64,000 bases of DNA from a virus: the IMG/VR virus record IMGVR_UViG_3300027704_000017, positions 5,034-69,033 of that record. One strand, written 5' to 3'. Below, piece by piece: positions 57,533 to 61,720 of the stretch. The notes below the pieces were generated by a model. It was not told the DNA's origin. It made no database searches and saw only the letters and a program-made list of their open reading frames with translations. Within the stretch, counting starts at the first letter, position 1; every line of letters begins with the position of its first letter. Made by a program: the position numbers and the translations under genes.

Positions 57533-57746
57533 TATGCTCAAGAAGTATAACCACTTCGTACACGAGATGTGGAACGCTAACACAGAGGAGCGGCAAGCCT
57601 ATGGTGAGCCTATCCTCAGTAAGGAAGAATACATACTAGAGAATAATACCTTTCTCGAAGATACTTTTTGGATAAATCAGTATGGAGATAAGGTTTGGGA
57701 CGGTGAGAAATACACCGAGCGGAGAAACATAGATGGCGTACAGTAA
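57522..57746 (+). CDS. Hypothetical protein
   Basis: Coupled ORF in operon. Confidence 0.55.
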   Translation: MMSDMLKKYNHFVHEMWNANTEERQAYGEPILSKEEYILENNTFLEDTFWINQYGDKVWDGEKYTERRNIDGVQ

Positions 57747-58173
57747 ACAACTATTAGACCACTACGAGAACCCACGCAATGTGGGTACAATGGATGAAGA
57801 TGCTAGTAATGTAGGTACTGGTATGGTTGGAGCACCAGCCTGTGGAGATGTTATGCGTGATGAAGATGCTAGTAATGTAGGTACTGGTATGGTTGGAGCA
57901 CCAGCCTGTGGAGATGTTATGCGTCTTCAGATTAAAGTAGAGAATGATATAATTGTAGATGCTAAGTTTAAGACTTACGGTTGCGGTAGTGCAATAGCAT
58001 CTTCAAGTCTTCTTACTGACTGGGTGAAAGGAATGCACCTAGATGATGCTAATCAAGTTAAGAACACACAACTAGCGCAAGAACTAGCATTACCACCTGT
58101 GAAGATACATTGTTCCGTACTCGCAGAGGATGCGATAAAGTCAGCCATTCAAAACTACAGAAGTAAGGGCTAG
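57733..58173 (+). CDS. iscU: Fe-S cluster scaffold (carries a 66-bp in-frame duplication)
   Basis: DHYENPRNVG, GAPACGDVM, FKTYGCGSAIASSS, LPPVKIHCS. Confidence 0.93.
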   Translation: MAYSKQLLDHYENPRNVGTMDEDASNVGTGMVGAPACGDVMRDEDASNVGTGMVGAPACGDVMRLQIKVENDIIVDAKFKTYGCGSAIASSSLLTDWVKGMHLDDANQVKNTQLAQELALPPVKIHCSVLAEDAIKSAIQNYRSKG

Positions 58174-58790: not shown

Positions 58791-59106
58791 TTATGTCCCC
58801 GTAGCGAGTTCCAACGCTTTGAGAGCTGCCTTCGGACTTTTATCGAGACCCACCAGATCCTCAATCTCAATGTCCAGATTCTCAGCGATATTAGACACCA
58901 GCTCCATTTTCGTAACAGGTAACAGGTGTTTCACCGGTCTTGCTTGTATAGATAGCACGTTGATATACTCCTTCTCTTGATAGCTTACCAATGATACTCT
59001 TAGGGCTCTTCCCTAGCTCATCAGCCAGCTTATCCACTGTCTTAGTAGACGGGTTGCTTTTATACTCTTCCACAATATATGTAGTGAGATCATTAGTGTA
59101 GTTCAT
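58791..59106 (-). CDS. A2-like DNA-binding protein, frameshifted here by a 7-bp duplication (58912-58925)
   Basis: Removing one GTAACAG joins NYT...KSIIGKLSREGVY to PVTKMELV...GLDKSPKAAL. Confidence 0.7.
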
Positions 59107-59225
59107 AGCTAAATACATTCTCCTGTATGTCTAAAGTTTTCATCACAGATTCTACTGTGCAGTTGTACTTTTCTGCTATGTCGTAGATAGTCCAACCAGT
59201 TTCCCACAATCCTAGAATATCATCT

Positions 59226-59561
59226 TTAATCTTCATTTAGTTCTCCTATTACGTGCGTGTCGCTGTTACCCCAACGTATTGTTATCTCATCTTTATCAGC
59301 GTCTACTTCTAGTATTGATAGAGTACTGTACTCAAAGAAACCTACTTCGATATTGTTATCCCCTACTACTTGCCCATACGCTCGAAGAGCTACATCATAG
59401 TCTTTCTCTAGCGTTTTAAGCTCATGCTCTAGGCTGTTCATCTCAGCGTGCATTGCATCTAGTACTTGATACCGTTCCTCTAGGTTTTCTACTTGTGTTT
59501 TGAGGTTATTAAACATTACCTCGCCTCTTGCTTCAGTTGGAAACTCTACTACATTACCCAT
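59226..59561 (-). CDS. Hypothetical coiled-coil protein
   Basis: GGAG RBS; heptad pattern. Confidence 0.65.
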   Translation of the reverse strand: MGNVVEFPTEARGEVMFNNLKTQVENLEERYQVLDAMHAEMNSLEHELKTLEKDYDVALRAYGQVVGDNNIEVGFFEYSTLSILEVDADKDEITIRWGNSDTHVIGELNED

Positions 59562-59739
59562 TTAAATTCTCCAGATACGCTTTTAAGTGTTGGTTGGCTG
59601 TTCTATGGTCTACTGGCCCTAGTGTCATAACTACTTTTCTATGCCCGCTAGGGTCTACTTGCATGATCCACCAGTTGCCTGTGTTATGGTCTTGTTGTAA
59701 TTCGTAATGCATCATATGCTTCTCCTTTTTATAGTTATA

Positions 59740-59768
59740 ATTATACAGAACCTTCAGAAATTTGTCAA
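59740..59768 (-). promoter_or_regulatory. sigma70-type promoter
   Basis: TTGACA-17bp-TATAAT. Confidence 0.85.
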
Positions 59769-59787
59769 GAAATATTTTATCGTAGGC

Positions 59788-59813
59788 AAAAAAATACCCT
59801 CCGAAGAGGGTAC
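59788..59813 (-). terminator. Intrinsic terminator ending candidate ncRNA
   Basis: Minus strand TACCCTC-TTCG-GAGGGTA-TTTTTTT. Confidence 0.9.
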
Positions 59814-60199
59814 TAAACCAGCTACTACACTGTTAAAAAGTGCTACACCCTGCCCATCCACCAGGATTGTGTAGCGATTGACCCTCAACTTAGCGTTTTT
59901 AGAGAAAGGATAAACGTAGTCTACGACCACAAACCTACTTTGTTCGGTACAAAGATACAAAACCCCCTACTTGCCATACGCTTTATACACCTCTCAAGTG
60001 GGTAAGGTGTGCCAGTCTGTCCGCGAGATCAAAGAACACCAAAGGTTAATCAGATCACTCAAGCATTGTTACTGGACTTAACGAGCAGTTGGTAGCACTT
60101 ATTTATAGTCCCTGCATATCACAGACGCTCACCAGCTTAGGACTTACAGTGAAGGTACAGGGAGACGCTTTATCAGTGCGTTCCTTTCCTCACTTTTGA
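59790..60199 (-). ncRNA. Candidate ~410-nt structured non-coding RNA
   Basis: Own promoter and terminator, no credible ORF, multiple stems. Confidence 0.6.
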
Positions 60200-60205
60200 A
60201 ACACT

Positions 60206-60234
60206 ATTATACTTACTTTTAACCAAATCGTCAA
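60206..60234 (-). promoter_or_regulatory. sigma70-type promoter of candidate ncRNA
   Basis: TTGACG-17bp-TATAAT. Confidence 0.85.
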
Positions 60235-60450
60235 GAACTATTTTTGGAATCCTTAAACTATTTGCTAGGAATCAAGCCATTCCTGAAAGGTTTTAATATA
60301 CTCACCAGAGCCTTTCATACAACTAACATAAATTTCGTATCTATCGTACATCGCACTCATACTAACCTCCCATACATACTAGAACTAAAGGGAAGAAGAA
60401 TAGCGTAGCTACGAACCACGCTATACCACTATACTTTTGTGACGCGGACA

Positions 60451-60774
60451 CTATAGTGCTGCCAAAGCATTTACTAGTGACTCAAGGTCTTGCTTAGATG
60501 CTTTCTCAAGTGTAGACAACTCTACACCAAGTGCTTCGTTGATCTGTGCTACTAGCTCTGCTTTACGGATTACCGGAGCACCAGTCTTGGTGACTCGTGG
60601 AGCTGCTTTGTAAACGCCCTCACGCACTAGCTTAGCAACAATAGATCGTGTAGTCTTGCTGAACTCTTCAGACAATCTAGCAACTGTCTCTGGAGTTGGG
60701 TTATCTTGATAGTCGGCAACCATAGCCTGTACCATTTCTTCTGTGTAGTTTACTGCTTTAGTTACTTCTGTCAT
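60451..60774 (-). CDS. A2-like DNA-binding protein
   Basis: VNYTEEM...RSIVAKLVREGVY...IRKAELV...LEKASKQDL. Confidence 0.75.
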   Translation of the reverse strand: MTEVTKAVNYTEEMVQAMVADYQDNPTPETVARLSEEFSKTTRSIVAKLVREGVYKAAPRVTKTGAPVIRKAELVAQINEALGVELSTLEKASKQDLESLVNALAAL

Positions 60775-60837
60775 AATCTTGTCTCCCGATAAGAATGCTT
60801 TGATTTGTTTGATTAGGTTCTTTGTTTTCATGTTTCT

Positions 60838-61079: not shown

Positions 61080-61120
61080 GTTAAATCCTTAATTTAGTTG
61101 TTTTCTTGGTTTATGCGTGT

Positions 61121-61149
61121 ATTATACGCCCATATCACCATGTTGTCAA
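61121..61149 (-). promoter_or_regulatory. sigma70-type promoter
   Basis: TTGACA-17bp-TATAAT. Confidence 0.85.
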
Positions 61150-61720
61150 TAACTTTCGGGCAAACACGGTGACCAAACGCAGTTTAATTCTCGGGGGCCC
61201 GACGCGACCTCGACGTGTCAAGTATTATTTTCCCTAATTGTCCAAAATTATATCGTCCCCGCCCAGGTTTTCAAAGACTAGACACTTCTATCCCTAATTT
61301 GCCCAAATTTGATTTAGTACTTGACATTGTTGGTGTACTACTGCTATAATCGGCGCCTTTGGCAGCAACTTTCATTTACTTGGTCGAATTTGCTCGGGGT
61401 CACAGAAAAGACTTGACATTGTTGAACTACTACTGTACAATCGGCGCAGGCTACTCTTGGGAGCAATCGTAGTACTACTCAATCGTTGTTCTACTACTGG
61501 CGCCCCCGCGCCGACCATGTCAAAAAAAGACCTGACCAATTGCCCCCAACCTGGTCACACGTTTTTGAGGCCCATTCAAATAAATCATTGTTGTTCTACT
61601 ACTGGCGCCCCCGCGCCAAAAAAATCATAAAGTCAAGCATTATTTTGCTTTTTTTATGATTTTTCTGGAAAAAGAAAAAATCCGCAATTTTTCTTTTTTG
61701 CGGATTTTTGGGTTTTGCAG

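Follow-up and report, generated by a model that had tools for sequence, protein, structure and literature searches.

What is encoded by a stretch of about 0.4 kb that stands among small phage genes, behind a promoter close to the consensus, and holds no open reading frame (ORF) led by a ribosome-binding site (RBS)? The question was raised by the minus strand of a 64-kb window, the whole stretch of DNA that was analysed, which forms part of the 69-kb IMG/VR virus record IMGVR_UViG_3300027704_000017 (estimated to be 70% complete). An initial annotation had proposed a stand-alone structured non-coding RNA (ncRNA) here, possibly a novel large phage RNA. Our analyses indicate that the locus very probably belongs to a real family of structured non-coding RNAs, which, as judged from sequence comparison, is uncatalogued and carried by uncultured marine T5-like siphophages. 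The replicon itself is assigned to the T5-like siphophages from its predicted genes, which include major tail and tape-measure proteins, an SbcC-like nuclease, a ribonucleotide reductase and a family-A DNA polymerase with ~45% identity to its best cultured relatives, which are Demerecviridae.

The RNA is its own transcription unit. It lies in a run of small minus-strand genes, each of which follows its own near-perfect sigma-70 promoter. The consensus promoter, the UUCG terminator and the stand-alone arrangement described in the initial annotation were all recovered: the promoter agrees with the consensus at 11 of 12 positions, the terminator has a 9-bp stem followed by a U-run, and a separate promoter then serves the next gene (see Table 1 for the coordinates of all features). 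The same organization is found across the family. A promoter with at most one mismatch to the consensus precedes the RNA in 57 of 63 loci, ending 19 to 228 nucleotides (nt) before the model start, and in the six loci where none was detected the upstream sequence at hand amounts to only 0 to 139 nt. Most relatives have a T-run approximately 80 to 100 nt past the core. Measured from the -10 box to the U-run, full units range from 325 to 620 nt across the family, with 418 nt in the window.

Comparison shows the unit to be non-coding, in that it has no conserved ORF. The claim that no RBS-led ORF lies between promoter and terminator was borne out. A reading in which the locus encodes one or more small proteins, or a dual-function RNA, could draw on a sense-strand TTG frame of 68 amino acids (aa; 59754..59960), the sole minus-strand ORF above 40 aa, and on frames of 28 to 36 aa on the opposite strand. 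However, the 68-aa frame crosses both the terminator and the next promoter. When read from the aligned column, it meets a stop within 0 to 38 codons in 43 of 45 members, being open in the window and in locus L067, and 29 of the 45 aligned members have no ATG, GTG or TTG in the column of its start. All sense-strand frames of the core are closed in each of the 45 aligned sequences, the length of 237 out of 249 pairwise indels is not divisible by three, and substitutions in the stems are compensatory. We give a coding role scarcely any weight.

Homologs of the RNA were found using the IMG/VR relatives of the upstream gene, which encodes a 126-aa protein. Two of these contigs carried a homologous non-coding stretch with core identities of 83% and 73%. 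A DNA pattern made of three conserved words from the first three homologs, which fixes CGCGGA, CTGG and TAAAGYGTATGG, then matched 68 metagenome loci, mostly marine. A covariance model (R1), built from three sequences only, confirmed 60 of the 68 at 96 to 220 bits; the remaining eight are chance matches to the pattern. Five IMG/VR contigs also carry the RNA, three of which came from further patterns, and the homologs now number at least 65. Scores for the window are 233.2 bits (R1) and 226.8 bits (model R2), the window having been among the sequences from which both models were built, and it contains the complete core of approximately 220 nt that defines the family (helices Pa and Pb, the UGAU/UGAU loop, hairpin Pd with its pseudoknot, Pe, Pf and GAGG). 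A neighbouring 216-aa exonuclease-like protein is encoded in all four RNA-bearing IMG/VR contigs tested, which suggests that the carriers of the RNA form one phage lineage.

Neither blastn with a 601-nt query against 50,697 phage records nor tblastn of the 126-aa neighbour protein gave a match in cultured phages. R2 at E ≤ 1 had no match in whole T5, Aeromonas phage Akh-2, Proteus phage 1 and two related IMG/VR contigs, and the 69-kb record that contains the window served as a positive control, in which the same route detected the RNA once. A pattern scan of prokaryotes, with one genome for each of 185,579 species, gave three loci, chance matches that neither R1 nor R2 confirmed, a result that tests the pattern only. 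We found no description of the RNA in the literature. In the case of a catalogue described as holding ~10,000 viral structured RNA candidates of 29 to 151 nt (PMC10690425), four 12-mers from the core were absent from the six supplementary files searched as text.

The structure of the core was examined by comparing the homologs. The initial annotation had named covariation among homologs as a check, and the helices do covary. The refined nested structure has 29 pairs, and in an alignment of 34 distinct sequences pairing is seen in 97.3% of 971 cells, compared with 86.8% for shuffled and 31 to 44% for slid pairings. Both sides change in 12 of the 29 pairs, and the covariation score is 0.279 versus 0.101 for shuffled data, with 0 of 500 shuffles reaching as high a score. 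Two stems proposed at the outset, ACACCT/AGGTGT and CTTTGT/ACAAAG, are present as hairpins Pd and Pe, and both covary: three of six pairs in Pd and all five pairs in Pe change on both sides. Base pairs at the base of the variable hairpin Pc covary as well, and the long-range helix Pf likewise gains support. The pairing of Pa and Pb, which are almost invariant, is consistent with the alignment but unproven.

The loop of Pd is predicted to form an H-type pseudoknot with a segment 3' of GUAUGG. Gap placement by MAFFT and by the model was inconsistent here and column counts failed, and the pseudoknot was therefore assessed from per-sequence duplex energies, in which each sequence's own (cognate) partner was compared with the partners from other variants (non-cognate). 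For 23 distinct loop/partner variants, the cognate value was -9.27 versus -5.94 kcal/mol for the non-cognate, with swaps such as CCUCUAC/GUAGAGG, AGCUAAUAG/CUAUUAGC, CCUAAC/GUUAGG and ACCUUAGU/ACUAAGG. Cognate partners were also favoured for the long-range helix Pf (-4.99 versus -3.00 kcal/mol, with variants such as GAUUCAG/CUGAAUU) and for the 5' closing helix S1 (-10.6 versus -8.3 kcal/mol, with many compensatory variants that include GGGGAAGG/CCUUCCC and AGAUUGG/CCAAUCU).

Several other pairings were considered and set aside. The outer closing helix of the automatic three-sequence consensus (69.3% paired on the wider set) and its two long-range helices (39.6% and 64.9%) were dropped. A local helix GUAG/CUAC that overlaps Pf is uncompensated in L050-type sequences (-0.2 kcal/mol), and Pf was preferred. 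Pairing of the junction word AGGUUUGUG with the Pf loop was rejected, cognate and non-cognate energies being -3.82 and -3.79 kcal/mol. GAGG never varies, and its pairing with CCU of the Pf loop in a pseudoknot is sterically doubtful. A likeness of the UAUGG and CCUAAG words to the GAAA-tetraloop receptor was rejected because CCUAAG varies as part of a stem in the relatives.

The RNA was compared with known families using all 4227 models of Rfam 15. At the gathering score there were no matches in the whole window, and at E ≤ 10 a segment of 801 nt around the RNA (59600-60400) gave noise only, at 13 to 17 bits. In seven related viral loci the matches were transfer RNAs (tRNAs) and one abiF motif elsewhere, with none on the RNA, and in 18 family members at E ≤ 1 they were the flanking tRNAs and transfer-messenger RNA (tmRNA). 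ARAGORN found no tRNA or tmRNA gene in the window, and in relatives the tRNA and tmRNA models match only flanking genes. Models of ribonuclease P (RNase P) RNA (bacterial A and B, archaeal, nuclear and type T) gave nothing at E ≤ 10 in the window or at E ≤ 1 in the 18 members. No model of a riboswitch, T-box or other Rfam cis leader matched, and a separate consensus promoter stands after the terminator; no group I intron model matched, and the RNA is a stand-alone unit with its own promoter. The early judgement, which saw no hallmarks of tRNA, tmRNA or RNase P, and the Rfam search suggested with it thus gave the same answer. With a T5-like replicon, at least 65 homologs, covarying helices, a pseudoknot and no Rfam match, the proposal of a possibly novel large phage RNA has held up, and the family appears to be new, with no detectable homolog among catalogued RNAs.

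By analogy, the kind of RNA is already known, namely large ornate phage RNAs found at tRNA islands. GOLLD and ROOL are described as phage RNAs that are located near tRNA islands and assemble into cages made of RNA only (PMC12286853). In the same account GOLLD is a large, elaborately folded RNA of phages and prophages, of unknown function and often by tRNA genes, with a conserved 3' part, a variable 5' part and a marine example that adjoins tRNA-Met; it was pulled down with ribosomes (PMC12286853). ROOL is presented there as phage-borne, multi-pseudoknotted, near tRNA islands, very abundant in at least one strain and of unknown function (PMC12286853). The context of GOLLD (a phage, nearby tRNA genes, a variable 5' part and a conserved 3' part) recurs in the new family, a resemblance of context with no homology shown: the 5' part is variable and modular, the core and 3' part are conserved, and the RNA often stands beside tRNA-Met. 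In contrast to GOLLD (RF01998), whose model had no match in the window or the 18 members, the new family has less than half the length (325 to 620 nt versus more than 800 nt) and occurs in other hosts and phages, namely marine T5-like phages. ROOL (RF03087) also gave no model match, differs in fold and sequence, and is found in rumen organisms and Lactobacillales, whereas the new family is found in marine phages.

Another parallel is the presence of a stable non-tRNA RNA among phage tRNA genes. The species 1 and 2 RNAs of T4 are stable non-tRNAs of ~140 nt in a phage tRNA cluster, are co-processed with the tRNAs and are partly tRNA-like. The RNA described here differs in that it is two to four times larger, has its own promoter, usually stands alone and, as judged by ARAGORN and the tRNA model, has no tRNA-like part.

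The link to tRNA genes was examined over the 63 loci. tRNA or tmRNA genes lie within 900 nt of the RNA in 18 of them, and in all 16 of these loci that have such genes within 330 nt of the core, the genes are on the same strand as the RNA. In 11 loci, same-strand tRNA genes (tRNA-Met with or without tRNA-Glu, or tRNA-Asn) follow within 330 nt downstream, ahead of the terminator, while in five the tRNAs lie upstream, outside the unit. The upstream genes are tRNA-Trp with a permuted tmRNA in three loci (L038, L056 and L057), or tRNA-Trp with further tRNAs; the permuted tmRNAs were identified by ARAGORN and by the Rfam model tmRNA_permuted at 85 to 93 bits. The window has no tRNA gene, which suggests that the RNA is retained even where tRNAs are gone. 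Both this frequent membership of tRNA/tmRNA islands and the modularity of the RNA go beyond the initial annotation.

Two further observations concern tRNAs at this locus. In a related IMG/VR contig (L005, 3012-3211), the large RNA is replaced behind the homolog of the 126-aa gene by tRNA-Thr, tRNA-Met and an abiF RNA motif, the latter with 45.4 bits where the gathering score is 37. In L003 (3715-3790), a degenerate tRNA-like sequence, with a T-arm-like AGAGG-UUCAAAC-CCUCU and a 6-bp acceptor-like stem, stands where L002 has tRNA-Met and is called by neither ARAGORN nor the tRNA model.

The RNA is also present in assemblies from the ocean. Public runs containing 13 to 40% of the stretch's sampled words number 24, from 13 studies, with 18 recorded as RNA. 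Marine metatranscriptome contigs span the core (~59930-60145) in all four runs examined, from four studies. In two runs one contig spans the core without any letter difference, and one contig runs on into the 5' module version of a relative. Two runs have no cover on 59300-59900 or 60170-60800, and we take this missing flank cover as a weak hint. In run X12 the core bins are much deeper than the flanks, contig depth being unfit for ranking genes.

For the function of the RNA, the evidence leans towards a stable, highly structured, modular phage RNA of the GOLLD/ROOL kind that acts in trans and is tied to the tRNA/tmRNA island, a parallel that rests on shared context. Action in trans rather than in cis is in itself probable. 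The host RNA polymerase would transcribe the RNA from the strong near-consensus promoter, which is of the same type as those at the neighbouring small genes, and transcription would stop at the intrinsic terminator. In some relatives the transcript would first run through one to two tRNA genes, so that RNase P would cut the 3' end of the RNA. The predicted fold would start with the 5' closing helix around swappable hairpin modules, proceed through the 5' domain (bulged-U helix, UGAU/UGAU loop and variable hairpin), the H-type pseudoknot and a hairpin, and end with the long-range helix around a pyrimidine-rich/A-rich loop, the invariant GAGG and a hairpin with a GGNGG loop. The folded RNA may act in trans alone, as a multimer or with a protein, and would belong to the phage tRNA/tmRNA island as a set that reshapes or protects translation, as is thought for GOLLD and ROOL. 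The translation apparatus is a tentative candidate for its partner. Both the invariant GAGG(U)G and the G-rich loop resemble Shine-Dalgarno sequences, which favours the small ribosomal subunit or tRNA 3' ends, and with two such purine-rich elements exposed the ribosome or tRNA 3' ends would be the most likely partners.

A bolder proposal, which we consider distinctly unlikely, is that the family would be a third, unrelated class of ornate phage RNA acting on translation, either as an RNA-only or ribosome- or tRNA-binding particle or as a tRNA-directed ribozyme. As a particle it would grip the anti-Shine-Dalgarno end of 16S ribosomal RNA, or tRNA 3' ends, with GAGG and the G-rich loops. As a ribozyme it would be a small tRNA-directed catalyst around the RNase-P-like bulged-U helix. 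The swappable 5' modules would in either case tune the RNA to different hosts.

The main rival to a trans-acting RNA of the GOLLD/ROOL kind, and an unlikely one in our view, is a counter-defence decoy that mimics or sequesters an RNA-directed host defence factor, for instance as an antitoxin-like RNA or as bait for a tRNA- or ribosome-cleaving nuclease, with the island tRNAs of T5-like phages working comparably. Shuffled 5' modules would suit an arms-race locus, the tRNAs and abiF motif that occupy the slot in L005 would fit, and tRNAs of the T5 family are described as neutralising PARIS and a retron (PMC11464382; 10.1101/2023.03.15.532788), the tRNA islands of this family being reported to serve as arsenals of counter-defence. 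However, the RNA has no likeness to a tRNA, a tmRNA, a ToxI-type repeat or a defence-linked RNA in Rfam, and its large invariant core points to a fixed complex fold rather than to a mimic of some simple substrate. No link between the RNA and a defence gene could be established. A cis element, serving co-transcribed tRNAs as a leader or processing scaffold or attenuating read-through into the genes downstream, would be in keeping with the 11 loci that have tRNA genes between the RNA and the terminator, and the invariant GAGG could pair with the CCCUC terminator arm in the window. In the relatives this complementarity comes to just 4 to 5 bp and is inconsistent, and in the five loci with upstream tRNAs these lie outside the unit. 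The window and most relatives show the order promoter, RNA, terminator and fresh consensus promoter, which leaves no cis target. Since a terminator closes the unit, the next gene is self-promoted and a pseudoknotted core of ~220 nt goes far beyond what a leader needs, a role in cis is very unlikely.

It is also highly improbable that the RNA is a ribozyme or tRNA-binding RNA for tRNA metabolism, either convergent with RNase P RNA or remotely derived from it. In this reading the bulged-U helix after AAGUCC and the GGU-containing G-loops would make up a small core for catalysis or for binding tRNA 3' ends. In RNase P, the bulged U of helix P4 is universally conserved, and the two P4 strands bring distant 5' and 3' regions together and enclose nearly the whole RNA. 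Pa (AAG-U-CCAGU with ACUGG-C) follows an AAGUCC word, and an A-rich junction precedes its bulged U, a resemblance to P4 that is not based on an alignment; many junction nucleotides are invariant, and tRNA genes adjoin the RNA in 18 of 63 loci. Unlike those of P4, the strands of Pa lie only ~55 to 100 nt apart and enclose a small domain, and the bulged base varies, being U in 39 of 45 sequences, another base in five and unaligned in one. RNase P models are silent at the thresholds given above, all other RNase P hallmarks are missing, and the window phage has no tRNA gene in 64 kb.

Several points weigh against the reading of a structured, trans-acting RNA of the GOLLD/ROOL kind. Its function is inferred from context. 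As many as 45 of the 63 loci, the window included, have no tRNA gene within reach, and the tRNA link is therefore frequent but not obligate. The minimum free energy of the single sequence is ordinary (-119.8 kcal/mol versus a shuffle mean of -118.6 kcal/mol, z = -0.23), so support for the structure rests on comparison with the relatives. Since the pair counts were taken from model-fitted alignments of related sequences, the shuffle counts overstate significance. On the wider set, three of the helices predicted by the initial automatic consensus did not hold (39.6 to 69% paired). The invariance of CGCGGA, CTGG and TAAAGYGTATGG arises partly by construction of the search pattern, which also fixes part of Pa and Pb, helices that hardly vary. 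GAGG and the G-rich loops show little or no variation, which puts their proposed pairing partners beyond the reach of covariation. Finally, the metatranscriptome evidence consists of contigs, which speak for presence in RNA libraries and not for ends, strand or level, and DNA carry-over is possible.

Large, intricately folded RNAs of bacteria and phages without a known function are rare, and OLE, GOLLD, ROOL and raiA each opened new biology or architecture. The new family is a compact, module-built example (325 to 620 nt) with a strong promoter and is found in ocean metatranscriptome assemblies. Its many natural variants should aid structure determination, its carrier lineage is related to the well-studied phage T5, and it offers a direct handle on why phages keep non-tRNA RNAs within tRNA islands. 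With the family added to RNA libraries, phage annotations would stop leaving a 0.4-kb gap blank. We consider the finding real and worth follow-up.

Outside the core, the RNA is built from modules. The 5' modules differ from member to member, as judged by eye. A stem AGTCC/GGACT in the initial annotation is present and becomes GCCCC/GGGGC in relatives (by eye), whereas the stem GCACT/AGTGT was not supported: its GCAC sits in the loop and stem of hairpin ACGC/GCGT, which is ACGAG/CTCGT in relatives. A terminal helix of the window between 5' AAAAGUG and 3' CACUUUU was seen by eye only; it overlaps the covariation-supported S1 and was set aside. At the 3' end, the proposed stem GCTACAC/GTGTAGC enclosing CCTG/CAGG is present as the G-loop hairpin, and relatives swap it to GUUAUAG/CUAUAAC with ACUG/CAGU. 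Across the family the stems of this hairpin differ between members and the loop keeps a GGNGG-type purine run, although the tally of 37 of 37 is unclean, the terminator hairpin having been taken instead in six tails. Six loci have, in tandem behind the full RNA and before the tRNAs, a second copy that has diverged and comprises only the 3' half. This copy has Pe, the junction, Pf, AAGG in place of GAGG, and the G-loop hairpin, and such copies suggest that the 3' half behaves as a separate module. In L074 a second match adjoins runs of N in the contig.

Table 1. Positions of the RNA, its signals and its predicted structural elements in the window, and of related features in other loci (locus name given with the position)
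Feature	Position	Strand	Remarks
Promoter TTGACG-17-TATAAT	60234..60206	-	Sigma-70 type; A-rich stretch upstream
Predicted ncRNA transcript, ~410 nt	59788..60199	-	Ends inferred from promoter and terminator; start expected near 60199
5' closing helix S1	60148..60194	-	AGUGAGG 60194..60188 with CCUUCACU 60155..60148
Small hairpin ACGC/GCGU	60181..60165	-	Enclosed by S1
Optional module X	60080..60145	-	GUCC/GGAC and CUG/CAG stems; by eye; missing from minimal members
AAGUCC words	60145..60140 and 60079..60074	-	Bound module X
Core 5' domain	60011..60079	-	Pa, Pb, UGAU/UGAU loop, hairpin Pc
Helix Pa	G60077 and C60075..U60071 with A60016..C60011	-	U60076 bulged; 99% paired
Helix Pb	within 60011..60079	-	UGC..GAG with CUC-GCG; 98.5% paired
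Symmetric internal loop UGAU/UGAU	60057..60054 and 60031..60028	-	In core 5' domain
Variable hairpin Pc	within 60011..60079	-	
Hairpin Pd	60010..60005 with 59992..59987	-	ACACCU with AGGUGU
H-type pseudoknot (predicted)	~60003..59996 with ~59972..59962	-	Pd loop with partner segment; from duplex energies
Conserved linker UAUAAAGCGUAUGGC	59987..59973	-	Between Pd and pseudoknot partner
Hairpin Pe	59938..59954	-	CUUUGU-ACCGA-ACAAAG; 98.2% paired
Conserved junction AGGUUUGUGGUC	within 59883..59936	-	Between Pe and Pf; also as GGUUUGUG in fold order
Long-range helix Pf	59921..59915 with 59895..59887	-	GACUACG with CGCUAAGUU; encloses pyrimidine-rich stretch and AAAAA loop
GAGG	59886..59883	-	Invariant in 45 of 45 sequences
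G-loop hairpin	59842..59875	-	GCUACAC/GUGUAGC around CCUG/CAGG; apical loop GUGGAUGGG
Small hairpin with UGUAGUAG loop	59816..59834	-	Just ahead of terminator; (Y)UAGUAAG loop in relatives; by eye
Intrinsic terminator ACCCUC-UUCG-GAGGGU and U-run	59788..59814	-	Hairpin and U-run 59814..59793; UUCG loop
Promoter of next gene, TTGACA-17-TATAAT	59768..59740	-	Separate from ncRNA unit
Second 3'-half copies	L028 921-1106; L029 461-646; L015 958-1113; L030 648-803; L045 1048-1203; L061 1048-1203		Model matches
Permuted (two-piece) tmRNA	L038 1470-1782; L056 185-598; L057 69-381		Tag ANDDVYSLAA; upstream of tRNA-Trp and the RNA

Other features of the window were noted in passing. The 126-aa protein upstream of the RNA (60451-60831, minus strand) and a 75-aa protein downstream (58891-59118, minus strand) share a C-terminal segment ..S.VAKL.REGVY.., which has a weak IF2_N-like Pfam match, and from their sequences the two look like paralogous small DNA- or RNA-binding proteins. 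An ORF-poor region at 61100-61700 has several consensus promoters on both strands and three to four direct copies of a 25- to 45-nt unit (ACTTGACATTGTTG..CTACTACTG) spaced 92 to 169 nt apart, with a GGCGCCCCCGCGCC palindrome after two of them; these repeats could be a small RNA gene array, promoter decoys or origin iterons. On the plus strand, 57733-58173 encodes an IscU/NifU-like protein (Pfam NifU_N, E = 1.8e-53), an unusual auxiliary gene for a T5-like phage. Within it, 22 residues (DEDASNVGTGMVGAPACGDVMR) are duplicated exactly and in tandem, and this duplication may be either real or an assembly artefact.

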